A stretch of 64,000 nt of DNA from SAR202 cluster bacterium Io17-Chloro-G4 (GCA_002816455.1 MUCR01000018.1:1855-65854); one strand, 5' to 3'. Counted from the stretch's first letter, positions 4,757-56,316 are shown. The notes: generated from the sequence alone by a model not told the origin. Translations and numbers: made by a program.

Positions 4757-4878
4757 GGTTCCTCCTAGTTGGGGTTAGTATGGCTACTATACCAAAACAA
4801 GCTGATGCGATGCTCAAGCGGACATACCACTAAATCAAGAGTTGGTCTTCCAAAAGTGGGCTTAAATCTAGTCCGCGT

Positions 4879-11110: not shown

Positions 11111-12307
11111 ATGCGAGAAGTTGCGATAGTTTCACCTGTGCGCACCGCCGTGGGTAGCTTTGGGGGCACCTTGCGCGGCGTTTCCGCAGCCGACTTGGCC
11201 ACCACTGTCATCACTGAAACTCTGGACCGCAGCGGCCTGGACCCGGCCAAGGTTGACGACGTTATTCTGGGTCACGGCTATCCCAGCGGCGAGAACCCGG
11301 CAATAGGCCGCCTGGCTGGACTTAAAGCCGGCCTTCCGATCGAGGTGCCCGGTTACCAGCTGGACCGTCGCTGCTCCTCCGGCCTCCAAGCAATCCTCAA
11401 CGCCTCTATGCTGGTGCAGACTGAAAATGCCGACGTGGTAATCGCCGGCGGAGTGGAGAGCATGAGCAATGCCGAATATTATGTAAACGAGTCCCGCTGG
11501 GGCGCTCGGTTCGGCTCGATGACCCTGCACGACCGTTTAGCCAGGGCCAGGGAAACCATCTCCCCCGAAGAGCGGTTCGGCTTCATTTCCGGCATGATCG
11601 AAACGGCCGAGAACCTGGCCAAACAGTACGAGATTTCCAGAGAAGAGCAGGACGAATACTCCTTGCGCAGCCACCAGCGGGCTGTGGCCGCCGTTGAAGG
11701 CGGTAATTTCGATTCCCAAGTGGTGGGCGTGCCGGTGCCACAACGCCGAGGAGACCCGATCCCCTTTGATAAAGACGAAGGTCCCCGGGGCGACACCACA
11801 TTGGAAGCTTTGGGCAAATTGCGTCCCATTTCGACAGACGGCACCGTAACGGCCGGCAACGCCAGCAGCCAGAATGACGCAGCTTCGGTCTGCCTGGTCG
11901 TTGCTGCGGACAAGCTGGAAGAATTGGGGCTAACGGCCATGGGTTATCTCCGTGGTTGGGCCGTCACCGGTTGCCATCCGGCCTACATGGGCATCGGCCC
12001 CGTATCGGCGGTAGCCAAAGTAATGGACAAAGTTGGCATGTCTCTGGGGGACATGGACTTGATCGAGTTAAACGAAGCTTTCGCCGCACAAGTATTGGCC
12101 GTCTTGCGAGAGTGGAAGCTGCCCAATGAGGACAATTTGAACGTCAACGGCTCTGGCATTTCCCTGGGCCATCCCATCGCCGCCACAGGCGCTCGCATTC
12201 TGACAACCCTGCTCCACGAAATGGAGCGCCGGGATGTCCAGTTCGGCTTGGAAACCATGTGCGTTGGAGGCGGCCAAGGCGTGGCCGCCCTGTTCGAGAG
12301 AAAGTAG
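11111..12307 (+). CDS. acetyl-CoA acetyltransferase (thiolase)
   Basis: AAAGGAG RBS before the ATG at 11111. Motifs MREVAIVSPVRTAVGSFGG, QLDRRCSSGLQAI, NGSGISLGHPIAATG and CVGGGQG. Confidence 0.9.
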   Translation: MREVAIVSPVRTAVGSFGGTLRGVSAADLATTVITETLDRSGLDPAKVDDVILGHGYPSGENPAIGRLAGLKAGLPIEVPGYQLDRRCSSGLQAILNASMLVQTENADVVIAGGVESMSNAEYYVNESRWGARFGSMTLHDRLARARETISPEERFGFISGMIETAENLAKQYEISREEQDEYSLRSHQRAVAAVEGGNFDSQVVGVPVPQRRGDPIPFDKDEGPRGDTTLEALGKLRPISTDGTVTAGNASSQNDAASVCLVVAADKLEELGLTAMGYLRGWAVTGCHPAYMGIGPVSAVAKVMDKVGMSLGDMDLIELNEAFAAQVLAVLREWKLPNEDNLNVNGSGISLGHPIAATGARILTTLLHEMERRDVQFGLETMCVGGGQGVAALFERK

Positions 12308-12410
12308 GCCCTGGCGGGCCTGCCCCGTTTTCGGGTCCGCAAAAGAGCGCCACATTCAACGTATTAACTGAAAGTTCTAACACAGGCAAATAAATCTATG
12401 GGAGGATCAC

Positions 12411-13355
12411 ATGCCCGAAGTTTTTGGCAGCGGAGAATTTACTTATACATTTGTTGATGGCTGGGCCAAGTTGCCCGGCGGAGTGACGTTCAAGGAGTGC
12501 CCAGGAGTGGCGGTGGACTCCAGAGATAACGTCTATGTTCTAACACGGGGTGACCATCCTATCATCGTCCTAGACAAAGACGGCAACTACATCCGGTCCT
12601 TCGGTCAGGGGCTTTTTAGCGATGACCGCACCCACGGATTATACATCGGCCATGATGACTCGCTGATGGTTGCCGACGACGGCATTCATACAATTCAGAA
12701 GTTTAACTCTGAGGGCGAGAAGACCATGGAAATCGGTGAGCGCAACCACCCAGCGCCCCGGTGGAGTGGACAGCCCTTTAACCGACCCACGTCGGCCGCC
12801 ATCATGCCCAGTAACGGCGACGTTTATGTCTCCGACGGCTACGGCAACTCCCGCATCCACGTCTACACCGGCTCGGGAGAGTACAAGTTCTCTTGGGGCA
12901 GCCCGGGAATCGACGCCGGCCAGTTCATCCGGCCTCACAACATCGCCGTTGACGCCGATGACAAAGTCTACGTGGTGGACCGGGAAGCCCACAGGATTCA
13001 GATTTTCGACCCCAAAGGCAACTTCATCACCATGTGGAACAACATTCACCGGCCCGACTCCATGGTTCTCTGGAAGGACCACATTTACGTGGGCGAGTTG
13101 AACGGCATGGGCGGCGTGGACGATGCGCCTGGGCTGGGACACCGGGTAACTGTTTACGACCTCAACGGCAATCGGGTCTGCATGTTCGGCTCCGATGAAG
13201 AAGGAGAAGGCCCGGGGCAGTTCATTGCGCCCCACGGCATCGCCGTCGACTCAAAAGGCGACATTTACGTGTCCGAAGTTTCCTACACGATCCGCGGCCG
13301 CCACTTGGACCCGCCTCGGGAGATGCGCAGCTTGTCCAAGTACGCAGCGAAGTAA
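12411..13355 (+). CDS. NHL-repeat six-bladed beta-propeller protein (peptidyl-hydroxyglycine lyase-like)
   Basis: Repeated GQFxxPHxIAVDxxxxVYVxD motifs and SDGYGNSRIHVY. GGGAGGA RBS. Confidence 0.85.
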   Translation: MPEVFGSGEFTYTFVDGWAKLPGGVTFKECPGVAVDSRDNVYVLTRGDHPIIVLDKDGNYIRSFGQGLFSDDRTHGLYIGHDDSLMVADDGIHTIQKFNSEGEKTMEIGERNHPAPRWSGQPFNRPTSAAIMPSNGDVYVSDGYGNSRIHVYTGSGEYKFSWGSPGIDAGQFIRPHNIAVDADDKVYVVDREAHRIQIFDPKGNFITMWNNIHRPDSMVLWKDHIYVGELNGMGGVDDAPGLGHRVTVYDLNGNRVCMFGSDEEGEGPGQFIAPHGIAVDSKGDIYVSEVSYTIRGRHLDPPREMRSLSKYAAK

Positions 13356-20736: not shown

Positions 20737-21945
20737 CTACTGGGTCACTTCGCGCTGCTTGAAGTCATTAACTTGGTCCATGCTATAACCCAAGCCGAGC
20801 AAGACGTCTTGGGTATGCTGGCCGGTGACGGAGCCGACATGGCGCGCTTTCCCCGGTGTGTCCGACATGTGGAATGGGATGCCTATCTGGGAAACTTTCC
20901 CTTGAGGAGCCCCAGGCGCTTCAACCTCCACCACCATGCCCCGGTGGACTGTGTGAGGGTCGTTCAGCGCTTCTTCCATGCTATATACCTTACCCACGGA
21001 GATGTTCTGGTCTTTCAAGTACTCAAACCAATCGTCCCTGGTGCGGGTGACAAAGGTTTCCTCAAGGAACTTGGTGATTTCGTCCCGCTCTGGACCTTCC
21101 GCTTCTTGGCTGTCAACCAGGTCCTCACGGCCTAGAACCTTACAAAGATTTACCCAGAACCAAGGCTCTATAGCTGCGATTGTCAGATATTTGTTGTCCT
21201 TGGTGCGGTAGACGTTGTAATAGGTGGCCCCCCCGTTAAGGCGGCTCATGCCCCGTTTGGGAGACCGTCCCTCGCTATAAAACCCGGATACTACCGCCGC
21301 CAACATATACATCACACCTTCGGTCATGGCAATGTCCAGGTATTGGCCCCTCCCCGTGTTGTGACGCGCCATCAGGGCGGAGAGCACCGCAATAGCTCCG
21401 CATAGGCCGCCTCCGGCATAGTCGGCCAACAGGTTCAGTGGAATGGCTGGCTTTTCTTCCTCCGAATAGCCGATCATGCTCAACACACCGGAAAAGGAAA
21501 TATAGTTGATGTCGTGGCCAGCCATATCGGCATACGGACCGGTTTGGCCGTATCCGGACACCGAGCAATAAACTGCCCTGGGATTAATCTCTTTGACCTT
21601 TTCGTAGCCCGCCCCAAGCCGGTCCATGACCCCTGGTCTAAATCCCTCCACAATCACATCAGCGTCCTTAGCCAGGCTGTAGAAAATCTCCCTGGCTTCC
21701 GGCTCTTTCAAGTTCAGGGCCAGGCTGCGTTTGTTCCGGCGCAAAGCGTCGTAGGTTGCGTGCTTACGCTCATCTTCCGGGGTGGCAATGCCGCTGACGA
21801 CTTTTTCATAAGCGGCGCGCTCTCCGGTCATGGGACGTTCCAGCATCAGGACATCGGCGCCCAAGTCCCCTAAAATCATGGTGCAGAACATGCCCGGGGC
21901 GTTGCGGCAAAAGTCCAGGACCTTGATACCCTCTAGAGCTTGCAT
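20737..21945 (-). CDS. family III (CaiB/BaiF) CoA-transferase, stand-alone
   Basis: AAGGAG RBS before the ATG at 21945. Motifs KVLDFCRNAPGMFCTMILGDLGADV and GYGQTGPYADMAGHDINY, with the catalytic Asp present. Confidence 0.85.
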   Translation of the reverse strand: MQALEGIKVLDFCRNAPGMFCTMILGDLGADVLMLERPMTGERAAYEKVVSGIATPEDERKHATYDALRRNKRSLALNLKEPEAREIFYSLAKDADVIVEGFRPGVMDRLGAGYEKVKEINPRAVYCSVSGYGQTGPYADMAGHDINYISFSGVLSMIGYSEEEKPAIPLNLLADYAGGGLCGAIAVLSALMARHNTGRGQYLDIAMTEGVMYMLAAVVSGFYSEGRSPKRGMSRLNGGATYYNVYRTKDNKYLTIAAIEPWFWVNLCKVLGREDLVDSQEAEGPERDEITKFLEETFVTRTRDDWFEYLKDQNISVGKVYSMEEALNDPHTVHRGMVVEVEAPGAPQGKVSQIGIPFHMSDTPGKARHVGSVTGQHTQDVLLGLGYSMDQVNDFKQREVTQ

Positions 21946-22164
21946 AGGGAGGCTCCTTGGTAATATTTGAATGAAAGAGGCAATGTGAGAGACATTATAG
22001 CGGAGATAATGGCAGAGTTGAGTGTAGCCACCGCATGCTGTTGGCTGCCATGATGCATCGCCCATTGCGAGGGGCTATAATCTCTTTGCCTCGAAGAGAG
22101 CCGGGCAATCGCCGGCATAACTAATCCATCTTTTTGATTAATTTAGCTTGGACAGGAGTGCACC

Positions 22165-40291: not shown

Positions 40292-40539
40292 TCTTAAAAG
40301 CTGGGCCATCCTCTCGGGAACGGCCTTGGGACCCTGGTCAATCCAAGTCTGTTTTAAACCACGGCTATCTTATCAGGAAATTTGGCCGCTGGGAAGGGTG
40401 TTATGTAAAGTCGGTCCTGTCACCAATTAGTGCCCCACCCCAGATGTCCCTACCGGGTCGAGGATGCCCTATGAAATCGGCACTTCGCCGCTGAGGCTGG
40501 CTCAGCATGACATTTGCGGCGACCCATGGTCACCAACGG

Positions 40540-42570
40540 TTACGCCGCTATTCGCTTGCGCCGGTTAGTTACGTAGTCGACCAGCATGAACTCACCTATG
40601 TTGGCGGCGCTGGTGTAAAATGCCCGGCCCTGGTTGATGCGGGTCATCCGGTCAACGAAGTTCACCAACTGGTAGTTGTTCTCCAGCATGAAGGTGTTAA
40701 TGAGAATATCTTCTTGGGTGCAGCGTTTAACCTCTTTCAAGGTTTCCTGCTCGGTTCTATAACTGGGCGGGTAGCTGAAAAAGGCCTTTTCTCCTTCCAG
40801 GTGGGCCGTGGGTTCTCCATCAGTGATGCACAGAATCTGGCGGGTGCCGCCTTTCTCCTTGGACAGGAGCTTCCGGGAAAGCATCAGAGCATGATGAAGG
40901 TTGGTGCCCGACACCCACGAGTTCCAACTGGTCTTAGCCAACTCATCCTCTTTGATCTCTCTGGCATAATCGGAGAATCCGATGATACACAAGGTGTCTC
41001 TGGGATATTGAGTGCGGATGAGCGCCATCAGTGCAAGGGTGACTTTCTTAGCGGCTTGGAAGTTGTTGAACAGGCCCATGGACCTGCTTTGGTCCAACAG
41101 AACCACCGTGGACGTGCGGGTCATATGCTCGGTGCGGAAGACTTCGAAGTCTTGCGGACTCAGCTTCACCGGCACTTGGGGCCCGGAGCGCAGTACAGCG
41201 TTCTTTACAGTCGTTTGCAGGTCAATCTGGAACGGGTCGCCGAACTCATAGGCTTTGGTTTCGCCCAGCAAGTCGCCATTGGCGCCCCGGGTATCCATAA
41301 GGTGGTTGCCCATGCGGTCTTTTTTCAGGTGGACGAATACTTCCCGAAGGGCCTTTTGGCCGATGCGGCGGATGCCCCTGGCGGTCAGGTCCATCTTGTC
41401 GTCGTCGGTAACGTAGCCAGCGTCCTTCAATAGCTGGCGCAGTCGTTCCATTTCCTCCCAGGCTTTCCTTGCCTCATCCCCCAAAATCTCGGCCAGTTTA
41501 TCCGGGTCCACATCGTCTAAGTTCCCGGTGCGCATGGCCTGGCGCAGGGCTTCCTCCAGTTGGTCCTGCTCTTGAAGCTTGCGCATCATTTCCATGGCTT
41601 GGTCCATGGTTAGGCTGTCGTCGCCCAAGAAAGGATACTGGCGGCGCATATCGTCCATGGGCATCATTTGTTCCATGAGTGATGCCAGCTGGGCCATGGC
41701 ACGCTGTGTTTCCGGGTCCAAGGCCGCGTTCATGGCATCTTCCAGTTCGCGGCGCATTTCCGGAGACATACTCTCAAGCATAGACTGCATCTGACCGAGC
41801 TGCTGCTGCAGGTGCTCCATTAGCTCATCAAAGCTTTGGGGTGGGTTCGGGCCGAACATGGAGCCGAACGGTTGCATGAAACCGTCGAAATCCGGCTCAC
41901 GGCCATCCATCTTGTCCTTCATCATCTGGCCAAGCTGGTTCATCATCTCCCGCATTGCGGCCATGTCCTCAGGAGACATACCTTGCATCTGTTGCTGCAT
42001 CTGCTGGGAGAAGTTTTGGGCCATTTGGGACTTGAGCATGTCCAGCAACTCTTGGAACTTCTGCTGGGCGTCCGGATCCATGAAGTCGTATTCCATTAGC
42101 TGCTGAATCTGCCCGCCGACGCTTTCGGGGAGGTCGTCCAAGCGCTCCCGATTCCGCTGGGCCCTTTGCTCCAGCAGTTGCAGAAGGTTCTCGTGCTGTT
42201 GCCGCTCTTCGCTGTGGTCTTCCTCCACCTGCCCTTGGGCTTCATGCAGGCGACGGTCAATGCCCTCCCGCTCCGTGCGGACAATGTCTTCAAGGCGCTC
42301 CTTCAGGTCGTCAACAACCGAATCCATGTTGTACTGTTGAAGCTGCTCTCTGCGCCGGTTCTTCAGCTGATCAATCAGGTCCTTGAGGCTGGTGAGTTGC
42401 TGTCCGTTTTGGTCCATAGCGCCGTTACGAAACAGCTCCCGCAGGGCCTTCATCATATCGCCCTGCTTTAACAACTCATCAGAGAGTTGGTCCATCAACG
42501 CATCGGCGTCGATGTCGAAAATTCGCTGAGTGCCATCCCATTGGGAGTAACGATAGGTGCGGTAGAGCAT
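40540..42570 (-). CDS. von Willebrand factor A (VWA) domain protein with long Met/Gln/Glu-rich helical N-terminal region
   Basis: C-terminal MIDAS VVLLDQSRSM...ILCITDGEPT. The N-terminus is YSQWDGTQ. GAGGAAG RBS. Confidence 0.85.
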   Translation of the reverse strand: MLYRTYRYSQWDGTQRIFDIDADALMDQLSDELLKQGDMMKALRELFRNGAMDQNGQQLTSLKDLIDQLKNRRREQLQQYNMDSVVDDLKERLEDIVRTEREGIDRRLHEAQGQVEEDHSEERQQHENLLQLLEQRAQRNRERLDDLPESVGGQIQQLMEYDFMDPDAQQKFQELLDMLKSQMAQNFSQQMQQQMQGMSPEDMAAMREMMNQLGQMMKDKMDGREPDFDGFMQPFGSMFGPNPPQSFDELMEHLQQQLGQMQSMLESMSPEMRRELEDAMNAALDPETQRAMAQLASLMEQMMPMDDMRRQYPFLGDDSLTMDQAMEMMRKLQEQDQLEEALRQAMRTGNLDDVDPDKLAEILGDEARKAWEEMERLRQLLKDAGYVTDDDKMDLTARGIRRIGQKALREVFVHLKKDRMGNHLMDTRGANGDLLGETKAYEFGDPFQIDLQTTVKNAVLRSGPQVPVKLSPQDFEVFRTEHMTRTSTVVLLDQSRSMGLFNNFQAAKKVTLALMALIRTQYPRDTLCIIGFSDYAREIKEDELAKTSWNSWVSGTNLHHALMLSRKLLSKEKGGTRQILCITDGEPTAHLEGEKAFFSYPPSYRTEQETLKEVKRCTQEDILINTFMLENNYQLVNFVDRMTRINQGRAFYTSAANIGEFMLVDYVTNRRKRIAA

Positions 42571-42704
42571 TCTTCCTCACATTCCCATCGACTTAAGAAC
42601 CTGGCAATTCTGGGCCACCAAAGGATAACACCACCATGATACCGCCTAGGTTTACTTCATATCAAGGAGGCATGTATGTGTTTGGTATGAAGATCTTACT
42701 CTTC

Positions 42705-42755
42705 CGTCATTCCGGCCCTTCCCCTTCCTCCTAAGGGCGAGCAGCGCAAGGGGAA
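42705..42755 (+). repeat. about 50-nt intergenic repeat, copy 2 (see 17050..17098)
   Basis: CGTCATTCCGGCCCTTCCCCTTCCTCCTAAGGGCGAGCAGCGCAAGG. Confidence 0.7.
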
Positions 42756-42961
42756 TCCATGAATCGTCTCGACCAAGAAATTTACTGGACACTGGCCTTC
42801 GCCGGTGTAACGGCAACGTGTCACGGTGGATGCTAGCTTCAAGTTAATGGACCCGCTTCAGGCGGCCATTAGGCCTGGGTCCTATGCTATAATCGGCCCA
42901 CTTTCAGCCCGGATTTTGCTGGGCCCGGATCTAGCTGGGCAATAAGGAACCACAGCCGAAT

Positions 42962-44185
42962 ATGCTCAGTCCTTACACAGTTTTAGACCTTACCGATGAC
43001 AAAGGTGAGTTCGCCGGCATGCTCCTTGGAGACTTGGGCGCAGACGTCATCAAGATAGAGCCGCCGGAAGGCTCAAATAGCCGCAAGATGGAGCCATTCT
43101 TGGACGGGGCGCCAGACTCCGAACGCAGCCTTCGTTATTTTGCGTTCAACCGTAACAAGCGGGGCGTTACCCTAGACTTGAACAGCGATGACGGCAAGCT
43201 AGCTCTCAGGTCCCTGGCAGAGAAGGCGGACTTCATCATCGAATCGGCTCCACCGGGCGAGATGGACCGTCTAGGTGTTGGATTTGACGTTCTCAGGCAG
43301 GTCAACCCCCGCATAGTGCATGTGGCGATAACACCCTTTGGCCAGGATGGCCCGTACGCCAATTTCGCCGCCAATGATTTGACCCTGGCCGCCATGAGCG
43401 GGCAAATGAGCGTTCAAGGTGACCCAAATAGACCCCCGGTGCGCATCACAGTACCCCAGGTGTGGTTGCACGCCTCGGCCGAAGCAGTGGTGGGAGCGCT
43501 CACCGCCCACGCTAGGATGCTGGCGACGGGAGAGGCGCAGTTTGTGGACGTATCCGCCCAGACCGCCATGTTCTGGTCCATGTTGCACGCCCGGCTTGCT
43601 CATCCGATTCAGGGGTCCAATTTCAACCGGGGTGGATCTGTACTCCAATTGGGAACTTTAAGCGTGCCGGTCGTGTACGAGTGCGCCGACGGTCACATCG
43701 TAGCGCTTCCCTCGGGCGCCACGATGGTCAAGATGGTCCACTGGCTGGTGGCCGACGGAGTTGTGCCCGAAGAATGGATAGAAGGCGAAGACTGGCCCAT
43801 CTACGAAAGGAACCTATTCCAGGAAAACGCCGTGCGATACCCCATGGAAGAAGTTGTGGATGCCGTTAGCCGTTATATAAAGAGACGCACCAAAGCTGAA
43901 CTCTTGGAGTTGGGTCTTCGGGAAGGCGTGACGCTGGCGCCGGTGAGCACCGCAGAGGACTTGGTCCGCTTTCGGCATTTGGAGGAGCGGGGATACTGGC
44001 TCACAGCTCCGTTACCAAACGGCAGCGAGGTGCGAGCGCTAGGAGTCTTAGCGAGGCCTACGGCGACTCCCATGAGCGTCCGCCTTTGGGCGCCGGCATT
44101 GGGCCAACACAATCAGGAAGTCCTAGGAGACATGCTGGGGCTGTCGCCAGCGTCAGCCGCCGCCGCCAGCGGCCGGAAGGGGTAG
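42962..44185 (+). CDS. family III CoA-transferase, subunit type A (copy 1, catalytic Asp present)
   Basis: Motifs VLDLTDDKGEFAGMLLGDLGADV and GQDGPYANFAANDLTLAAMSG. Confidence 0.85.
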   Translation: MLSPYTVLDLTDDKGEFAGMLLGDLGADVIKIEPPEGSNSRKMEPFLDGAPDSERSLRYFAFNRNKRGVTLDLNSDDGKLALRSLAEKADFIIESAPPGEMDRLGVGFDVLRQVNPRIVHVAITPFGQDGPYANFAANDLTLAAMSGQMSVQGDPNRPPVRITVPQVWLHASAEAVVGALTAHARMLATGEAQFVDVSAQTAMFWSMLHARLAHPIQGSNFNRGGSVLQLGTLSVPVVYECADGHIVALPSGATMVKMVHWLVADGVVPEEWIEGEDWPIYERNLFQENAVRYPMEEVVDAVSRYIKRRTKAELLELGLREGVTLAPVSTAEDLVRFRHLEERGYWLTAPLPNGSEVRALGVLARPTATPMSVRLWAPALGQHNQEVLGDMLGLSPASAAAASGRKG

Positions 44186-44188
44186 TAC

Positions 44189-45412
44189 ATGGCCTCATCA
44201 GACAAGTTGCCATTTGATGGCGTGAAAATTGCGGACTTTTCTTGGGTGTGGGTCGGCCCTACCAGCACCAAATACCTGGCGGACCACGGCGCCACCGTTG
44301 TGAGGGTGGAATCCCTGAGCCGGCCTGATATCCTGTATAGCCTCGGTCCGTTCAAAGACCGGGAGGCCGGACCCACCAGGACCCATGCTTTCAGCGACTT
44401 CAATACGTCCAAGCTTGGCCTTACTTTGAATTTAAAGACTCCCGAAGCCACTGAAATCGCCAAACGCTTGATTTCCTGGACCGACGTTTACGTTGAAAGT
44501 TTCACTCCTGGGACGATGGCCGGATTGGGCATAGATTATGAAGTAGCCAGGAAAGTTAACCCGTCAATAATCATGGTCAGCACTTGTCTTATGGGGCAGA
44601 GCGGCCCGGCATCGGCCTTCGCTGGCTATGGGTTTCATGCCGGGGCAGTGGCTGGATTTTACGACATTACGGGCTGGCCTGATCTTGCCCCAGATGGACC
44701 CTGGGTGGCCTACACCGATGTGGTCACTCCTAGAATTCTGTCGGCCATTATAATGGCGGCCGTGGACCATAAACGCCGTACCGGCCAAGGCCAATATATC
44801 GACGCCAGCCAATTGGAGATGGGACTGCAGTTCTTGGCGCCCCAGATCCTCGATTACACTGCTAACGATCACTTGACCACACGCAACGGAAACCGATCCA
44901 ACTTTGCTGCCCCGCAGGGAGCGTATTCCTGCGCCGGTGATGACCAATGGTGCGCCATTGCCGTCGAAAGTGACGAAGAGTGGGCTGGCTTGGTCAAGGT
45001 ACTAGGAAACCCCGGTTTGGCTACGGACGGCCGTTTCGCCACAAACTCAGGTCGTCTACAAAACCACGACGAGATTGACGCTCAAATCTCTCAGTGGACT
45101 GCCGCCAAGACGCCGCAAGAAGTGATGAGGCTCTGCCAAGCAGAGGGTGTGCCGGCGGGAGTAGTCCAGCGAAGCAGTGACTTGTTTGAGGACCCGCAAC
45201 TGGCTCACCGGAGAATGTTTCCTCAGCTCGACGATCCACAAGTGGGACCGGTTCCTCACACCGGTCATCTGTTTGACATTCGCGGCTACGACCATGGGCC
45301 GCGGTCCCCCTCTCCGTTAATAGGCCAGCACAACGAGCAGATATTGAAAGAATTCCTGGGCATGACTGATGACGAAATCACCGAAGCCGTAATAGCGGGC
45401 GCCCTGGAATAA
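44189..45412 (+). CDS. family III CoA-transferase-like, subunit type B (copy 1, Asp replaced by Gly)
   Basis: Motifs KIADFSWVWVGPTSTKYLADHGATV and GQSGPASAFAGYGFHAGAVAG. Starts 3 nt after A1 ends. Confidence 0.85.
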   Translation: MASSDKLPFDGVKIADFSWVWVGPTSTKYLADHGATVVRVESLSRPDILYSLGPFKDREAGPTRTHAFSDFNTSKLGLTLNLKTPEATEIAKRLISWTDVYVESFTPGTMAGLGIDYEVARKVNPSIIMVSTCLMGQSGPASAFAGYGFHAGAVAGFYDITGWPDLAPDGPWVAYTDVVTPRILSAIIMAAVDHKRRTGQGQYIDASQLEMGLQFLAPQILDYTANDHLTTRNGNRSNFAAPQGAYSCAGDDQWCAIAVESDEEWAGLVKVLGNPGLATDGRFATNSGRLQNHDEIDAQISQWTAAKTPQEVMRLCQAEGVPAGVVQRSSDLFEDPQLAHRRMFPQLDDPQVGPVPHTGHLFDIRGYDHGPRSPSPLIGQHNEQILKEFLGMTDDEITEAVIAGALE

Positions 45413-45454
45413 ATTAAATCATGGTAATCAAGAACCGGGCGTGAAAGGACCTAA

Positions 45455-46681
45455 ATGCTCAGTCCCTACACAGTATTGGACCTGACGGATGAAAAAGGCG
45501 AGTTGGCCAGCATGGTGCTGGGCGACTTGGGCGCGGACGTAATCAAGGTGGAGCCGCCCGGTGGCTCGCCGAGCCGGGCCATGGGGCCATATTTGGAACA
45601 CGCTCCAGAGGCGGAACGTAGCCTCCAATACTTTGCTTTCAACCGAAACAAACGTAGCGTAACTCTGGACCTGGAAACGGAAACGGGGCGCACCGCATTG
45701 TTCTCTTTGGTGGAAAAAGCCGATTTCATCATCGAGTCGGCCCAGGCGGGGGCGATGGCCGGGAAGGGGCTGGGATTTGAAGCCATGCGGCAAGCGAATC
45801 CCCGTATCGTTTACGTGGCTATAACACCATTTGGGCAAGATGGGCCTCATGCGAATTTCCCCGCCAGCGACCTGACTGTTGCCGCAATGGGCGGCCCCAT
45901 GAGCCTGCAGGGGGTTCCAGACCGCGCTCCCGTGCGATTGTCCCTGCCCCAAGCTTGGCTACATGCTTCGGTGGAAGCATCAGTCGGAGCTTTGACCGCC
46001 CACGCCCTGATGCTACGCACTAACCAAGCCCAATTTGTGGATGTGTCCGCTCAGACTGCCATGATTTGGACCATGATGCAGGGGATGTCAGCTCACTCGG
46101 TCCAAGGCCGGGACTTCAACCGGAGCGGCAACACAATCCAGTTGGGAACGGTCAACCTCCGTTTGGTCCACGAATGCGCTGACGGCTACGTGGTGATATT
46201 TCCCATTGGGGGCGCCCTGTTTAAGCTAGTCGAATGGTGCGTTCAGGATGGCATTATTCCCGAAGATTGGCTCACTGCCGAAGATTGGCCCATGTACCAT
46301 TTCAAAGTGCTCCAACAGCAACCGGTGGCCCATACGATTGACGAAGTTTTGGAAACTGTCAGCGCCTATGTTCGGGACAAAACTAAAAACCAATTGCTAG
46401 AGCATGGTCTCGCCGAGGGAGTGTCCATGGCTCCGGTGAGCAACATGGAAGATTTGACCCGATTCCGTCACTTGGAGGAGCGCGGTTATTGGCTTACGGC
46501 CCCGTTGCCCAATGGAAGCGAAGCCCAAGTGCCGGGCATTTTCGCCAACCTCACCGGAACGCCTTTGAGTGTACGCCGTTGGCCCCCCAAACTGGGTGAG
46601 CACACCGACGAAGTATTGGGGGACCTATTAGGGCTGTCGTCAAGCCAGATCGCGGACGCGTCTGGCCATGGGCCAGGTTAA
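45455..46681 (+). CDS. family III CoA-transferase, subunit type A (copy 2)
   Basis: Collinear with 42962..44185. GQDGPHANFPASDLTVAAMGG. Confidence 0.85.
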   Translation: MLSPYTVLDLTDEKGELASMVLGDLGADVIKVEPPGGSPSRAMGPYLEHAPEAERSLQYFAFNRNKRSVTLDLETETGRTALFSLVEKADFIIESAQAGAMAGKGLGFEAMRQANPRIVYVAITPFGQDGPHANFPASDLTVAAMGGPMSLQGVPDRAPVRLSLPQAWLHASVEASVGALTAHALMLRTNQAQFVDVSAQTAMIWTMMQGMSAHSVQGRDFNRSGNTIQLGTVNLRLVHECADGYVVIFPIGGALFKLVEWCVQDGIIPEDWLTAEDWPMYHFKVLQQQPVAHTIDEVLETVSAYVRDKTKNQLLEHGLAEGVSMAPVSNMEDLTRFRHLEERGYWLTAPLPNGSEAQVPGIFANLTGTPLSVRRWPPKLGEHTDEVLGDLLGLSSSQIADASGHGPG

Positions 46682-46698
46682 TACGATTCTCTCATTAT

Positions 46699-46815
46699 GT
46701 CATTCTGAAAGAGCGCAGCGACAGAAGCTCCCCCGATGGCATCGGGGCGAGTCCTCGACAACGTCGGGAAATCTCGTGTGTTTAGCATCAGATCCTTCAC
46801 TTCACACAGAATGAC
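46699..46815. mobile_element. MITE-like about 117-bp insertion between A2 and B2
   Basis: Terminal inverted repeats GTCATTCTG (46699..46707) and CAGAATGAC (46807..46815), with an internal hairpin CCCCGAT-GGC-ATCGGGG. The A1-B1 junction has only a 3-nt spacer. Confidence 0.55.
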
Positions 46816-46873
46816 ACTCCGTAAATGGAGAGTACCAAATTTGAGGCCGTCTAAGACAAGAGTAGAGGTTTAG

Positions 46874-48094
46874 ATGCCGGATACGCTGCCGTTTGAAGGG
46901 TTAAAAATCGCCGACTTTTCGTGGGTCGGAGTGGGTCCCATTACCACCAAATACCTGGCCGACCACGGGGCAACCGTAGTGCGGGTGGAGACTACCAGCC
47001 CTCTGGATATTCTACGGGTCGCCGGCCCCTTCAAAGACAGTGTGCCGGGCCCAAACCGCAGCCAGTTCTTCGCCGACTACAATACTTCCAAATACGGAAT
47101 CACCTTAGACCTAAAAAACGCAGCCGCAGTCGAGGTGGCTCACCGCCTGATTGCCTGGGCCGATGTTCTTGCTGAGAGTTTTACCCCCGGCACCGTGGAC
47201 AGCCTGGGCATCGGGTACGAAACCGCTCGTGCCATTAACCCTTCAATAATAATGGCCAGCACTTGCTTGATGGGGCAGACCGGCCCCGCCGCTAGCTTTG
47301 CCGGCTTCGGATTTCATGCCGGTTCCATCGCTGGCTATTATGAGATCACCGGATGGCCCGACCTTCCACCGGACGGTCCTTGGACCGCCTACACCGACAC
47401 GGTATCACCTCGATTTTTAGCCGCGATATTAATGGCCGCTCTGGACCACCGGCGTAGAACCGGTGAAGGCCAACACATCGATGCTGCTCAGTTGGAGATG
47501 AGCCTTCACTTCCTTGCGCCTCAATTGATTGATTACAACGTCAGCGGACGGTCGATCACCCGAAACGGCAACCGTTCCGAGTTTATGGCGCCTCACGGGG
47601 CTTTTCCTTGCCAAGGTGAGGACCAATGGTGCGCCGTGGCCGTGGAAAACGACCAGCAATGGGCTGGGCTGCAAAGGGCCATGGGTGAGCCTGACTGGGC
47701 CAAAGACCAGAGATTCGCCCATGTGGAGGGCCGTCTAGCAAACCAGGACGAAATAGAAAGCAAGCTAGGCGAGTGGACAAAGTCCATGCCGCCGAAAGCG
47801 GTTATGGAAGCTTTGCATGGGCAAGGCGTTCCAGCCGGCATCGTTCAGCGGAGCAGTGACCTGCAGCAAGACCCTCAATTGGCTCACCGAGGGTTTTTCC
47901 GGGACCTGGACCACCAAGAAATGGGCACCGTACCTTACGCTGGCCACCAGTTCCGCATCAGCGGCTACGACAGCGCCCCCAGGTCAGCGGCGCCTGTGCT
48001 GGGCCAGCACAACGACGAGGTGCTGCGGGATATCTTGGAAATGACCGAGGAAGAGATTACCGAAGCCATAATTGCCGGAGCCTTGGGCGGCTAA
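46874..48094 (+). CDS. family III CoA-transferase-like, subunit type B (copy 2, Asp replaced by Gly)
   Basis: Collinear with 44189..45412. GQTGPAASFAGFGFHAGSIAG. Confidence 0.85.
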   Translation: MPDTLPFEGLKIADFSWVGVGPITTKYLADHGATVVRVETTSPLDILRVAGPFKDSVPGPNRSQFFADYNTSKYGITLDLKNAAAVEVAHRLIAWADVLAESFTPGTVDSLGIGYETARAINPSIIMASTCLMGQTGPAASFAGFGFHAGSIAGYYEITGWPDLPPDGPWTAYTDTVSPRFLAAILMAALDHRRRTGEGQHIDAAQLEMSLHFLAPQLIDYNVSGRSITRNGNRSEFMAPHGAFPCQGEDQWCAVAVENDQQWAGLQRAMGEPDWAKDQRFAHVEGRLANQDEIESKLGEWTKSMPPKAVMEALHGQGVPAGIVQRSSDLQQDPQLAHRGFFRDLDHQEMGTVPYAGHQFRISGYDSAPRSAAPVLGQHNDEVLRDILEMTEEEITEAIIAGALGG

Positions 48095-48097
48095 GCC

Positions 48098-49303
48098 TTA
48101 CTCTTCTCCGAAGAAACGCCGTTTTGTATTTTCATCCATCGCTGGGAGGGGCCCGCTGAGCAGCACGTCCAACTGCCGGGTTCGGTCTTCTCTCCAAGCC
48201 GCAAAGGCCTTTGCCCGGCGAGCGTCCGCCTTCTGTCCGGTTTCCATTAATAAATCGGTTTCCCAAAGCTCGACGTCGTGTAAGACCTTGTAGTACCGGT
48301 CACGCTCTTCAGCATAGGCGTTGCCCGCCCCTTCCCAGTCGTTATGCTGCAGCAGCGCATCCCGTAGAACACGTACATCCCTCAGGGTCAGCGACAATCC
48401 CTGTCCCCAAGTTGGGTCTGGTGCGCCTCCCGCTGCGCCGATCAGAGCGATGCCATTGCGATAAGGATGGTCCACCCAAGAGGCCGCTCCGTCGAAGGTC
48501 GCCAGCGGTCCCGACGGCTTGGCATTGGCATAGCAGGATTCGGGCATACCCGCTTTAATGGACTCTTCAATAAAACGGGGCACGTCCTCTTCGCCGGTCA
48601 ATCGAAATCCGGCCGCTTCCCCGTAACAAACGTAACCCCTAACCCGGCCGCCGCCTTGGGGAAAAATCAATACCCAAAGACCCAGTTCGGGATTTAGCCA
48701 AGCGTGGGAAGTGTCATCGGCGACTGGGACATCGTCCAACAAGAGACCCGCCACCAGCGTATGGCCGGGGTCCCGCTGAACGTCAAAGCCAGCCCATCTC
48801 CGAAAAGGCGTATCGCGCCCGTCAGCGCCGACGACCAACCGCGCCCGAAACTCAGTGTCGCATCCATCTACCTCGGCCACCACCTTTGGCGACCCATCAG
48901 TCTGGACGCCAACCACCCTTACGCCTCGCCGGATTTCCGCTCCGGCGTCAGCAGCTGCCTGCATCAAGCATTCTTGAACAGTTGGGTGATAGAAAGCAGT
49001 CACTGCCTCTTTAGGGGTAGTGGTGGCGGTCAGGTCGCGGTGGCTTGTCCTCTCAGAACCCTGGTAGCCGTCCCACCAGGGCAGGTCGCGTCCTCCGGAA
49101 GCCATGATGCAATCATATATCCCCAATTCCTTAGCTTCCGCCGTGCCCCAAGGCATAATGGCCTCACCCCGTACTCTATCTCTGAATACGGAGTCCCGTT
49201 CCAAGACGAGCACTTTTGCGCCCTGCTCAGCCATGGCCTTGGCAAGGGAAGAGCCAGCAATCCCTCCGCCAACAGTGATGATGTCATAGGTTACGGTAAC
49301 CAC
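48098..49303 (-). CDS. FAD-dependent monooxygenase (aromatic-ring hydroxylase/UbiH-like)
   Basis: GTG start. Motifs DIITVGGGIAGSSLA and ALIGAAGGAPDPTWGQG. Confidence 0.85.
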   Translation of the reverse strand: MVTVTYDIITVGGGIAGSSLAKAMAEQGAKVLVLERDSVFRDRVRGEAIMPWGTAEAKELGIYDCIMASGGRDLPWWDGYQGSERTSHRDLTATTTPKEAVTAFYHPTVQECLMQAAADAGAEIRRGVRVVGVQTDGSPKVVAEVDGCDTEFRARLVVGADGRDTPFRRWAGFDVQRDPGHTLVAGLLLDDVPVADDTSHAWLNPELGLWVLIFPQGGGRVRGYVCYGEAAGFRLTGEEDVPRFIEESIKAGMPESCYANAKPSGPLATFDGAASWVDHPYRNGIALIGAAGGAPDPTWGQGLSLTLRDVRVLRDALLQHNDWEGAGNAYAEERDRYYKVLHDVELWETDLLMETGQKADARRAKAFAAWREDRTRQLDVLLSGPLPAMDENTKRRFFGEE

Positions 49304-49696: not shown

Positions 49697-50218
49697 CTAG
49701 AGCACTTTAGCTCCCAAGATTTTTTCCAGGTGCTCCAATGCCCAACGGTGAGCTTCATTGTCGAATGACGCCACGCACCCTGCGGGCACCTCCACGGGGT
49801 AGTCCCGGTTGCGAGCATCGGACGTAGTGTGCATGACGCAGATATCTGTGCAGACGCCACAGACGACCAGTTTGCCGGGTTGGAGTAGCTCCAAGCGCCG
49901 CTCAAGGTCTGTATTGAAGAACCCGCTATAGCGGTTCTTGGGTACCACGTTGTCTCCGGTCACGAACTGGGAAAGTTCGGGAATCACATTGGGCTCTTCG
50001 GTCCCTTTGACACAGTGGACCGGGAATATCTGGAACTCCAAATCGTCTGGATCGTGGTGGTCGGAAATAAACAAAACGTGAGACCCGGCCTGGGTCTCAC
50101 GTTTTAGCAAATCAAGCACATTGGGAACGATTTTCCGGGCTTCGTCACCGCAATACAGGTTGTGCCCCGGCTCCAAAAAGCCCCGCACCATGTCGATTAC
50201 CAGCACCACGTTGGCCAT
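49697..50218 (-). CDS. isochorismatase-family cysteine hydrolase (nicotinamidase-like)
   Basis: Motifs VVLVIDMVRGF and LVVCGVCTDICV. Confidence 0.85.
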   Translation of the reverse strand: MANVVLVIDMVRGFLEPGHNLYCGDEARKIVPNVLDLLKRETQAGSHVLFISDHHDPDDLEFQIFPVHCVKGTEEPNVIPELSQFVTGDNVVPKNRYSGFFNTDLERRLELLQPGKLVVCGVCTDICVMHTTSDARNRDYPVEVPAGCVASFDNEAHRWALEHLEKILGAKVL

Positions 50219-50268: not shown

Positions 50269-51165
50269 TTAAAACAGATACAAAACTGCCTGAGTTTCCG
50301 CAGTGTAAGAAGCGTCCTTGGACAGCATGGCGTCCAAGCCCACGATGTTAAAGCACTCTTCCACGTTTACCATATTGTCCAAGAGGTGGGATGTAGTCCC
50401 TTTCTGCTTTAGCTCTTGCATCACGTCTGTAACCACCCGGCAGACGGTGAGCAGGGCGCTGACCGGGAAGATGACGATTTTGAACCCCAGTTTTTCCAGT
50501 TCGGAAGCGGGTATTAGCGGTGATTTTCCGGTTTCCACGTAGTTATAAAGCAGCGGCACACCCAAACTCTTGGTAGCCCGCTCGGCCTCTTCAGGGGTTC
50601 GCAAGGCCTCGACAAACAGCACGTCGGCGCCCGCCTTTATGTAATCATCGCAGCGTCGCATGGAATCGTCCCAACCGGTCACCGCCAAAGCGTCGGTGCG
50701 CACGATGATCGTGAAATCGGGGTCGGTGCGAGCGTCAACGGCGGCCCGGATTTTCTGCACCATGTCTTCGACTGGAATTACCCGTTTGCCATCCAAGTGA
50801 CCGCACCGCTTGGGAAACTCTTGGTCTTCGATATGGATGGCTGCAACACCAGAGCGTTCGTATTGGCGCACCGTGCGCTGCACGTTGAGGATACCCCCGT
50901 AGCCCGTGTCGGCGTCGGCGATAACCGGGACATCGACCACGCTGGCAATTTCAGCGGCATTGCCCAGCATCTCCGACATGGTGGCGAGGGCTAAATCAGG
51001 GTAGCCCAGGCGGGCCACCGAGGTGCCGGCGCCGGTCATGTAGACGGCGGAAAACCCGGTGTTTTGGATAATCGTGGCCGTCAGGCAGTCATATGCCCCC
51101 GGCGCAACAATGATTCCCGGCTGGGACAATAATTTCTTTAAATTTGCTGTGGCAATAAAGGCCAT
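50269..51165 (-). CDS. isocitrate lyase/PEP mutase family enzyme (2-methylisocitrate lyase / carboxyvinyl-carboxyphosphonate phosphorylmutase-like)
   Basis: Motifs GAYDCLTATI, ADADTGYG and IHIEDQEFPKRCGHLDGK. GGAGGA RBS. Confidence 0.85.
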   Translation of the reverse strand: MAFIATANLKKLLSQPGIIVAPGAYDCLTATIIQNTGFSAVYMTGAGTSVARLGYPDLALATMSEMLGNAAEIASVVDVPVIADADTGYGGILNVQRTVRQYERSGVAAIHIEDQEFPKRCGHLDGKRVIPVEDMVQKIRAAVDARTDPDFTIIVRTDALAVTGWDDSMRRCDDYIKAGADVLFVEALRTPEEAERATKSLGVPLLYNYVETGKSPLIPASELEKLGFKIVIFPVSALLTVCRVVTDVMQELKQKGTTSHLLDNMVNVEECFNIVGLDAMLSKDASYTAETQAVLYLF

Positions 51166-55098: not shown

Positions 55099-56316
55099 TC
55101 AAGCCGCTCCCTCGAATGCCTCAACAGCCAATTCCGCTATATGGGAGCCGATGGCCAGAGATGAGGTCGCTCCGGGTGAAGGCGCATTGAGGACATGAAC
55201 CGCATCTTTTCCTCTTAAGATAGAAAAATCGTCCAGCAGAGCGCCGGAACGCGCGACTGCTTGGGCCCGTACGCCGGACCCGCCTGGCGCCAAGTCTTCC
55301 GCCTCAATCTCCGGTAGCAGCTTCTTCAAGTCCCGAACAAATATGCTTTTGCTGTAGGAACGGCGCATTTCTTGCATGCCGATCTTCCAGAACTTGGCCG
55401 CCATTTTCCAGAAGCCGGGGTAAGTGAAAGTCCCCATGGACTCGGCCAGGTTCCAGTCCGATTTCTTGTAACCTTCTCTTTTTAGAGCCAAAACCGCATT
55501 GGGGCCCGCTTCCACCTGACCGTGGATGTTGCGGGTGTAGTGGACGCCCAAGAAGGGGAACCGGGGGTCGGGGACCGGGTAAATTAGGCCCTTGACCAAG
55601 TGGTGGCTTTCCGGGCGCAGGGTAAAATACTCACCCCGGAATGGAATGATGCGGACATCCACGTCCTCGCCCATCATGGTCGCCACCCGGTCCGCATAAA
55701 GGCCGGCGCAATTGATGATGTGCTTGGCTTGCAGTTCCGCGGAAGGAGTTTCGACCACCATGCTATCGGAACGACGTGCGATCTTGCTCACCGGCGCGTC
55801 GGTAAAGATGTCGCCACCGGCTTGCTGGAAGCGATTGGCGTACGCTAAAGCAACCTTGCGGTAATCGATGATGCCGGTATAGGGAGCCCACAGAGCCTGG
55901 ATACCGGCAGCGTGGGGCTCTATTTCCTTAAGCCGCTCCGGACCGATCATCTCCAAGCCCTTAACCCCGTTGGCTACGCCACGTTCCTGTAAGGTCTCTA
56001 AGCGGCCTACCTCCTCCTGATTGAGGGCCACAATGACTTTGCCGCATTGCTCGTATTCGATTTCGTTCTCATCACAGAAAGTGAGCAAGGCCTGTAAACC
56101 AGCCACACAGAATTTGGCTTTTTGAGAGTCGGGACGGTAGTAAATTCCCGAGTGTATAACCCCGCTATTATGGCCGGTCTGGTGCCCGGCCAGTTCCGAT
56201 TCCTTTTCCACCACGGCTATGCGCCAGTTGGGAGACCTCTCCTTGAGTTGCATGGCGGTGGAAAGACCGACAATCCCGCCGCCGATAATGACTACGTCAT
56301 ATACTTTGGAATCCAT
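55099..56316 (-). CDS. lhgO: L-2-hydroxyglutarate oxidase/dehydrogenase (FAD)
   Basis: Motifs YDVVIIGGGIVG, HQTGHNSGVIHSGIYY, FRGEYF..LIYPVPDPRFPFLGVH and NAPSPGATSS. Confidence 0.85.
   Translation of the reverse strand: MDSKVYDVVIIGGGIVGLSTAMQLKERSPNWRIAVVEKESELAGHQTGHNSGVIHSGIYYRPDSQKAKFCVAGLQALLTFCDENEIEYEQCGKVIVALNQEEVGRLETLQERGVANGVKGLEMIGPERLKEIEPHAAGIQALWAPYTGIIDYRKVALAYANRFQQAGGDIFTDAPVSKIARRSDSMVVETPSAELQAKHIINCAGLYADRVATMMGEDVDVRIIPFRGEYFTLRPESHHLVKGLIYPVPDPRFPFLGVHYTRNIHGQVEAGPNAVLALKREGYKKSDWNLAESMGTFTYPGFWKMAAKFWKIGMQEMRRSYSKSIFVRDLKKLLPEIEAEDLAPGGSGVRAQAVARSGALLDDFSILRGKDAVHVLNAPSPGATSSLAIGSHIAELAVEAFEGAA

Follow-up and report, generated by a model that had tools for sequence, protein, structure and literature searches.

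Four consecutive genes for family III (CaiB/BaiF) coenzyme A (CoA) transferases, lying in the order A1-B1-A2-B2 along the plus strand, are found in a 64,000-nt stretch of DNA from SAR202 cluster bacterium Io17-Chloro-G4 (GCA_002816455.1 MUCR01000018.1:1855-65854), the whole of which is called the window below, and they raise the question of which member of each A/B pair carries the catalytic aspartate. A sequence-only reading of the same DNA had placed the acyl-aspartyl anhydride-forming residue in a G(Y/H)D motif, which has Asp in the A proteins and Gly in the B proteins, and had concluded that every B subunit lacks the catalytic Asp. The alignment presented here points to the opposite division of roles, with the predicted nucleophile in B and none in A, and each pair very probably makes up a two-subunit class III (CaiB/BaiF) CoA-transferase of the BbsEF type, so that this marine genome (SAR202/Dehalococcoidia, Chloroflexota) would have two such paralogous enzymes.

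The four genes

The genes are as follows:

42962..44185, plus strand: A1, 407 amino acids (aa), BbsE-like subunit predicted to be without a nucleophile; PF02515 at 5.7e-76
44189..45412, plus strand: B1, 407 aa, BbsF-like predicted catalytic subunit; PF02515 at 2.2e-96
45455..46681, plus strand: A2, 408 aa, second BbsE-like subunit predicted to be without a nucleophile
46874..48094, plus strand: B2, 406 aa, second BbsF-like predicted catalytic subunit

In a profile search each of the four proteins was a full-length PF02515 (CoA_transf_3) member (E 1e-76 to 1e-99), with scores of 256-331 bits against a cut-off of 23.3 and coverage from profile positions 2-5 to 366. None of them reached an NCBIfam equivalog cut-off (top score 208 bits versus 750); the top sub-threshold name for A1, B1 and B2 was succinate-glutarate CoA-transferase. 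A1 and A2 are 63% identical and B1 and B2 62%, at 23% between A and B, so the number, size, order and grouping of the genes given by the sequence-only reading all hold. The ratios of nonsynonymous to synonymous substitution rates (dN/dS) relative to the orthologues in the related genome Io17-Chloro-G7 (locus L002) were 0.085 for A1, 0.056 for B1, 0.075 for A2 and 0.070 for B2, with dS above 1 and thus near saturation. All four genes are under strong purifying selection, and the values of 0.075-0.085 for the A genes rule out that A is a decaying pseudogene.

Assignment of the catalytic residue columns

In family III the acyl-aspartyl anhydride is formed on Asp169 of Frc and CaiB (PMC5592240, PMC9196870), and the deposited titles of Asp169 mutants among the structure matches are in keeping with its role as nucleophile. 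The four proteins were aligned with a stand-alone paralogue from the window, with Frc of O. formigenes (the reference sequence used was identical to PDB 1p5h_A), with human SUGCT and with both chains of PDB 9fn0, a BbsEF structure. The G(Y/H)D motif aligned with Tyr139-Glu140 of Frc, and the Asp169 column lies about 30 residues downstream of it, so the motif Asp does not occupy the position of the anhydride-forming residue that had been ascribed to it. The residues in the two columns are:

A1 and A2: Asp139 in the Frc Glu140 column, Trp168 in the Frc Asp169 column
B1: Gly148 in the Frc Glu140 column, Asp177 in the Frc Asp169 column
B2: Gly146 in the Frc Glu140 column, Asp175 in the Frc Asp169 column
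Stand-alone paralogue: Asp145 in the Frc Glu140 column, Asp175 in the Frc Asp169 column
9fn0_A: Asp142 in the Frc Glu140 column, Tyr171 in the Frc Asp169 column
9fn0_B: Gly149 in the Frc Glu140 column, Asp178 in the Frc Asp169 column

The corresponding codons in the window are:

43376..43378, plus strand: A1 Asp139, the G(Y/H)D-motif Asp, aligned with Frc Glu140
43463..43465, plus strand: A1 Trp168 (TGG), where family III has its nucleophilic Asp
44630-44632, plus strand: B1 Gly148, Frc Glu140 column
44717..44719, plus strand: B1 Asp177, predicted nucleophile, counterpart of Asp169 in Frc/CaiB and of Asp178 in BbsEF chain B
45869-45871, plus strand: A2 Asp139, Frc Glu140 column
45956..45958, plus strand: A2 Trp168, nucleophile position
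47309-47311, plus strand: B2 Gly146, Frc Glu140 column
47396..47398, plus strand: B2 Asp175, predicted nucleophile

The distribution of Asp and Gly over the G(Y/H)D column was thus reported correctly by the sequence-only reading, and the identity of the catalytic column was not: it is A that lacks the Asp. That reading had itself stated that it would be refuted if the B proteins proved to have Asp or Glu in the catalytic column, and Asp is what the alignment places there. On this alignment A appears to be a member of the fold and not a transferase competent on its own.

The register of the nucleophile column is secure, because the segment from the GQxGP motif to this column contains no gap in A1 relative to SUGCT. 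The secondary structure of the model described below provides an independent, though predicted, check on the assignment: A1 Trp168 and B1 Asp177 are each the second residue of a long central helix (residues 167-189, and 583-605 of the joined A1-B1 chain), the same helix position as that of the catalytic Asp165 of MCT on helix alpha7, residues 163-186 (PMC9196870). A nearby Glu in A (within SAEA/SVEA) was considered as a substitute for the Asp and rejected, being out of register with the Glu of 9fn0_A and having no conserved counterpart in the consensus of natural A-B fusions.

The stand-alone paralogue (20737-21945, minus strand), with the motif GQTGPYADMAGHDINY, possesses both Asp145 and Asp175 and on these residues would be a canonical homodimer-type enzyme. 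Its open reading frame (ORF) can begin 40 codons further upstream (20737-22065, minus strand), giving 442 aa instead of 402 aa.

Agreement with the BbsEF structures

The best PDB match of A1 was 9fn0_A at 3e-55 (versus 5e-29 for 9fn0_B), and that of B1 was 9fn0_B at 5.6e-68 (versus 2e-20 for 9fn0_A); A and B are thus reciprocal best matches of different chains in the solved BbsEF. Each is about 35% identical to its BbsEF counterpart, compared with 23% between A and B, and therefore the A/B split is older than the divergence of these proteins from BbsEF. The JGI labels of A-type homologues already read "BbsE subunit" and those of B-type homologues "BbsF subunit". Each BbsEF entry in the PDB contains two chains of each type, that is, a heterotetramer.

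The deposited title of a further entry, 9fol, reads "BbsEF, D178-CoA adduct + succinate". By alignment numbering D178 belongs to the B-type chain, where it stands opposite B1 Asp177, and the A-type chain has Ala178 and, at the nucleophile column, Tyr171. Going by that title, therefore, a covalent intermediate was trapped on the B-type subunit.

Conservation of the residue pattern

The 120 best matches of A1 and the 120 best matches of B1 (about 240 homologues), which come from SAR202/Dehalococcoidia marine metagenomes, repeat this pattern almost without exception. In the A1 homologues the Glu140 column is Asp in all 120 and the nucleophile column Trp in 119; every B1 homologue has Gly at the Glu140 column, with Asp at the nucleophile column in 115/120 and Asn in the other 5/120. 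Judged from these sequences, Trp in A with Asp in B is a conserved trait of the family. The five Asn-bearing B homologues (P0177, P0194, P0208, P0222 and P0229) read AYTNTI or AYTNSI in this segment and are about 64-66% identical to B1.

Probable pairing of the A and B proteins

Related loci were compared with the window (20 in all; labels such as L002 refer to them). Every A-type gene in them adjoins or is fused to a B-type gene, and the B neighbour mostly lies directly downstream of A on the same strand; at L017 the residue columns of the gene downstream of A failed to align. The set reaches as far as pairs at 36% identity in Paradesulfitobacterium and in a metagenome-assembled genome of Adiutricales. 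The A and B trees are parallel, and therefore the pairs evolve as units.

Natural fusions were sought exhaustively with A1 among cluster representatives at 50% identity, a fusion being taken as a protein of more than 700 aa. Of the 150 top-ranking representatives, 102 were A-B fusions, in which the N-domain matched A best in 99/102 cases and the C-domain matched B best in 101/101. In the N-domain the Glu140 column is acidic and the nucleophile column is mostly F, Y, W or H; in the C-domain the former is Gly or Ala and the latter is Asp in 102/102. When A1+B1 and A2+B2 were concatenated and aligned with 96 of the fusions (98 rows), B1 Asp177 (D584 of the concatenate) was invariant in 98/98 rows.

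This natural-fusion alignment replaced a MAFFT alignment with single-domain matches, which had stacked the B matches on the A half (23-26% identity). With it, AlphaFold2 modelled A1 joined to B1 at a predicted local distance difference test score (pLDDT) of 95.2 and a predicted template modelling score (pTM) of 0.95, with disorder confined to the linker, residues 393-408; without an alignment, the concatenate gave a pLDDT of 35.5 and a pTM of 0.27. The model predicts a large Rossmann domain and a small domain arranged as an interlocked dimer, and its Foldseek template modelling (TM) scores were 0.91-0.95 with the B/D chains of BbsEF, 0.85 with the A/C chains and 0.81-0.95 over the solved family III chains as a whole. 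It is to be read as compatibility with the family architecture, not as independent proof.

At two of the related loci (L010, 6001-8463, and L013, 250-2703) A and B lie in a single ORF of 817-820 aa, and these relatives are about 71-72% identical to A1. The linker resembles a frame-shifted C-terminal tail of A; the two genes may truly have fused in recent times, or an indel in the assembly may have joined them (by its contig naming, L010 seems to be a long-read assembly). A1 and B1 of the window already share a frame and are separated by TAG and one codon.

Proposed mechanism and points against it

Each A (BbsE-like) subunit would most likely pair with the B (BbsF-like) subunit encoded directly downstream, and each A:B heterodimer would contain one competent site, made up of the large domain of B, with Asp177 in B1 or Asp175 in B2, and the small domain of A. 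By the standard class III route the B Asp would attack the donor acyl-CoA to give an acyl-aspartyl anhydride, which would be converted to an Asp-CoA thioester, from which CoA would pass to the acceptor acid. The A-centred site, with Trp168 in place of Asp, should be dead for CoA transfer, so A would be an obligatory structural partner lending its small domain to the working site. The arrangement suggests half-of-sites catalysis. As a matter of speculation, the Gly of B at the Glu140 column may enlarge the acceptor pocket. The idea of a heteromer akin to BbsEF with one catalytic and one non-catalytic subunit, put forward in the sequence-only reading, is thus retained on the strength of the BbsEF chain matches, the adjacency and the fusions, with the catalytic subunit inverted.

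Several points weigh against this reading. Five B homologues from elsewhere have Asn at the nucleophile position, and any pair that included one of them would be left without a canonical nucleophile. An invariant Asp139 and a conserved aromatic residue persist in the supposedly dead site of A, which hints at a retained function beyond the proposed mechanism. The gene order at one locus, L016, is B then A. The physical A:B assembly is drawn from homology at about 35% identity, from the fusions and from adjacency, and the confident packing of the domains partly restates the family architecture, as a fused chain and a fusion alignment went into the model.

Alternative explanations

The retained residues of A can be accommodated by an A:B heteromer in which the A-centred site serves a second function through Asp139 and the aromatic residue 168, be it a lyase- or hydratase-type step on a CoA ester, a regulatory role or the binding of a CoA ester. 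This is unlikely. It would account for an Asp139 invariant in 120/120 A homologues, for the almost constant presence of an aromatic residue (W, Y, F or H) in place of the nucleophile in split and fused forms, and for A genes as constrained as B genes (dN/dS of 0.075-0.085 for A); the two-domain relative DddD combines CoA-transferase and lyase activities (PMC6006322), and lyase functions for SAR202 paralogues were speculated on by Landry et al. (PMC5395668). All this conservation would follow equally well from structural demands on the core of the dimer, as residue 168 lies on the central interface helix. There is likewise a small chance that A is more than a scaffold, with a second reaction or with allosteric or CoA-ester binding in its site, and that adjacent pairs swap partners (A1:B2 and A2:B1). 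A second function in A would make every SAR202 A/B pair bifunctional, and partner swapping might widen the substrate range on refractory organic acids.

It is more improbable still that A and B do not assemble at all, B being an ordinary active homodimer and A a separate non-transferase homodimer encoded by a gene that is merely adjacent. Most characterised family III enzymes are homodimers (PMC5592240), the A:B interaction is in this case predicted from sequence and model, and the gene order is reversed at one locus, L016. Against such independence stand the A/B adjacency kept in all related loci, including those of distant anaerobes at 36% identity, the parallel A and B trees, the 102 natural fusions, the presence of both chain types in the nearest solved structure, which is a heteromer, the apparent coupling of the B start to the A stop, and the pTM of 0.95 of the model.

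The original assignment, with A catalytic through the G(Y/H)D Asp as anhydride-forming nucleophile and B non-catalytic, fits the Asp of A and Gly of B at that column in all sequences and retains next to no credibility. The alignment already refutes it, since the column matches Frc Glu140 and not Asp169 and since B has Asp and A has Trp at the Asp169 column itself. Also against it are the BbsEF adduct with CoA at D178 in the B-type chain (9fol title), the Asp of the B-like C-terminal domain in 102/102 fusions, and the dependence of PtmU4 on the Asp of its own C-terminal domain (PMC6006322).

Origin of the two pairs

The nearest relatives of A1 and B1 are the pair of L004, whose genomic surroundings differ, at 76% and 69% identity, and A2 and B2 have as orthologues (74% and 76%) the one pair that more distant SAR202 genomes possess at the syntenic locus (L006/L007); that locus contains the A2B2 orthologue only. 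In neighbour-joining trees, the phylogeny that had been proposed for the A and B clades, the common ancestor of A1 and A2 spans 121/122 tips of the A tree, and the B tree has the same shape. The whole four-gene block is common to Io17-Chloro-G7 (L002/L003) and to a 2.4-Mb Dehalococcoidia chromosome (L008). These relationships indicate that the pair was duplicated as a unit, long ago, and that the window holds two old paralogous units, each with its own orthologues, and not a recent tandem copy. The duplication of a two-gene unit proposed in the sequence-only reading is therefore upheld, and its description as tandem is not.

Junctions and the upstream region

The following features lie between and before the genes:

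44160..44191, plus strand: A1-B1 junction, a TAG stop, one codon and ATG in the same frame, with the Shine-Dalgarno-like GGAAGGGG within the 3' end of A1
46682..46873, plus strand: A2-B2 spacer, 192 nt, with a perfect 10-nt inverted repeat
42571..42961, plus strand: upstream intergenic region, divergent from a VWA-domain gene

The form of the A1-B1 junction, together with the GGAAGGGG element, suggests translational coupling. Co-transcription of the four genes is likely, and we infer the operon boundaries from gene spacing.

The arms of the repeat in the A2-B2 spacer (46698-46707 and 46807-46816; TGTCATTCTG and CAGAATGACA) flank 99 nt. The same junction is shorter in L002 (34 nt) and in L008 (52 nt), and the spacer looks like a small lineage-specific insertion, possibly an element resembling a miniature inverted-repeat transposable element or a repetitive extragenic palindrome. 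Its 24-nt terminal motif occurs as a single copy in the window, its fold is not significantly stable (z = -1.68), and an Rfam scan of 42000-49000 gave zero matches.

The upstream region 42571..42961 presumably holds the promoter of the four-gene unit; no convincing promoter consensus was found in it, and the promoter/terminator scan was at chance level. A 308-aa ORF (40507-41433, plus strand) that runs opposite to, and wholly within, the 676-aa VWA-domain gene (40540-42570, minus strand) is probably spurious.

Genomic context and possible substrate

All the named neighbours lie on the strand opposite to the four genes. Upstream are carB, carA, pyrC, pyrB, pyrR and the gene of the 676-aa VWA protein, and downstream are genes for a flavin adenine dinucleotide (FAD) mono-oxygenase, an isochorismatase-like protein, a PrpB-like protein of the phosphoenolpyruvate (PEP)-mutase/isocitrate lyase (ICL) family, FabG, PlsX and a MaoC-type dehydratase. 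This flanking synteny is kept in 12 related loci and mostly reflects chromosome order, not a pathway, with one exception:

50269..51165, minus strand: PrpB-like gene (methylisocitrate-lyase-like, PEP-mutase/ICL family), TIGR02317 at 312 bits, below the 354 cut-off

No other neighbour is found next to A/B pairs in two independent contexts. In the unrelated L004/L009 context a close homologue of this gene (3e-156) lies 1.1 kb downstream of an A1-like pair on the same strand, and L004 has PrpB-like genes at 11531-12505 (plus strand) and 4800-5690 (plus strand). The PrpB-like gene is thus a candidate functional partner, although the hint is a weak one. The neighbouring genes had been read as pointing to an acid-activation pathway; their opposite orientation and the scarcity of functional evidence in them leave of this suggestion only the recurring PrpB-like lyase. 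The L004 context also includes two Amidohydro_2 genes, an amidase and a reductive-dehalogenase-family gene.

The isochorismatase-like gene (49697-50218, minus strand) is present in L002, L008, L011, L012, L014 and L015 and absent in L006/L007 and L010; it is therefore a variable insert within the conserved synteny. An L-2-hydroxyglutarate oxidase, an enzyme of dicarboxylate metabolism, is encoded about 7 kb from the pairs (55099-56316, minus strand; NF008726 558 bits versus a cut-off of 299).

No bbs or bss genes are annotated among the neighbours of the four genes, nor is the bbs beta-oxidation operon (bbsA-H) found beside them, and because these genes are missing the substrate is almost certainly not benzylsuccinate. 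Since the nearest characterised relatives (BbsEF, SUGCT, Mct and SmtAB) all use dicarboxylates and succinyl-CoA (PMC5592240), our best guess, of low confidence and made by analogy, is a succinyl-CoA-dependent activation of substituted dicarboxylic acids, possibly tied to the recurrent PrpB-like lyase.

Relation to known enzymes

As in BbsEF, two different family III subunits are encoded by adjacent genes. The E-type chain has Asp at the Frc Glu140 column together with an aromatic residue (Tyr171) at the nucleophile column, and the F-type chain has Gly149 together with Asp178, so that the nucleophile occurs in the F-type subunit only (D178 of 9fn0_B against Y171 of 9fn0_A); here B1 and B2 have D and A1 and A2 have W. 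The differences from BbsEF are an identity of only about 35%, a Trp instead of a Tyr at the dead site, and a host of the marine SAR202 lineage instead of an anaerobic toluene degrader.

In two-domain type III enzymes the catalytic Asp lies in the C-terminal domain (PMC6006322), and the two-domain fusions agree with the A/B pairs in having the Asp-less domain first and the Asp-bearing domain second, with N-domains that match A best and C-domains that match B. The difference is that the halves are here separate polypeptides, with a TAG between A1 and B1 and a 192-nt spacer between A2 and B2, and neither the lyase activity of DddD nor the sulfur transfer of PtmU4 can be extended to the A/B pairs. 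The homodimeric enzymes (Frc, YfdW, CaiB, SUGCT, YfdE and Mct) share with them the PF02515 fold, the interlocked dimer and an Asp169-type nucleophile, kept in B; in those enzymes, however, the subunits are identical and both sites are active, whereas here A has lost the nucleophile and B the acid of the Frc Glu140 column. A possible further relative is SmtAB, a class III heteromer of (alpha-beta)n composition that belongs to the same phylum and acts on dicarboxylates (PMC5592240).

Significance

The expansion of CaiB/BaiF genes in SAR202 (PMC5395668), the C-terminal catalytic Asp of two-domain enzymes (PMC6006322) and the BbsEF heteromer with its D178 adduct (PDB, released December 2025) are already known. 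Added here are two more members of apparent BbsEF type and the correction, based on the aligned residues, that the first gene of each pair encodes the non-catalytic subunit. For the enzyme family itself this is nothing new, the same architecture being present in the BbsEF crystal structures and in the two-domain relatives. At the same time, automatic "BbsE/BbsF benzylsuccinate" labels on marine genes are not to be read as toluene metabolism.

The large expansions of CaiB/BaiF paralogues in SAR202 genomes, DddD-like matches included, have been taken to mean that a broad range of recalcitrant organic acids can be activated (PMC5395668). Should many of the paralogues turn out to be A/B pairs with one working site per heterodimer, about half of the counted paralogues in such pairs would be non-catalytic. 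The functional unit would then be the pair and not the gene, which would change how the repertoires of these abundant deep-ocean bacteria are to be counted and expressed.

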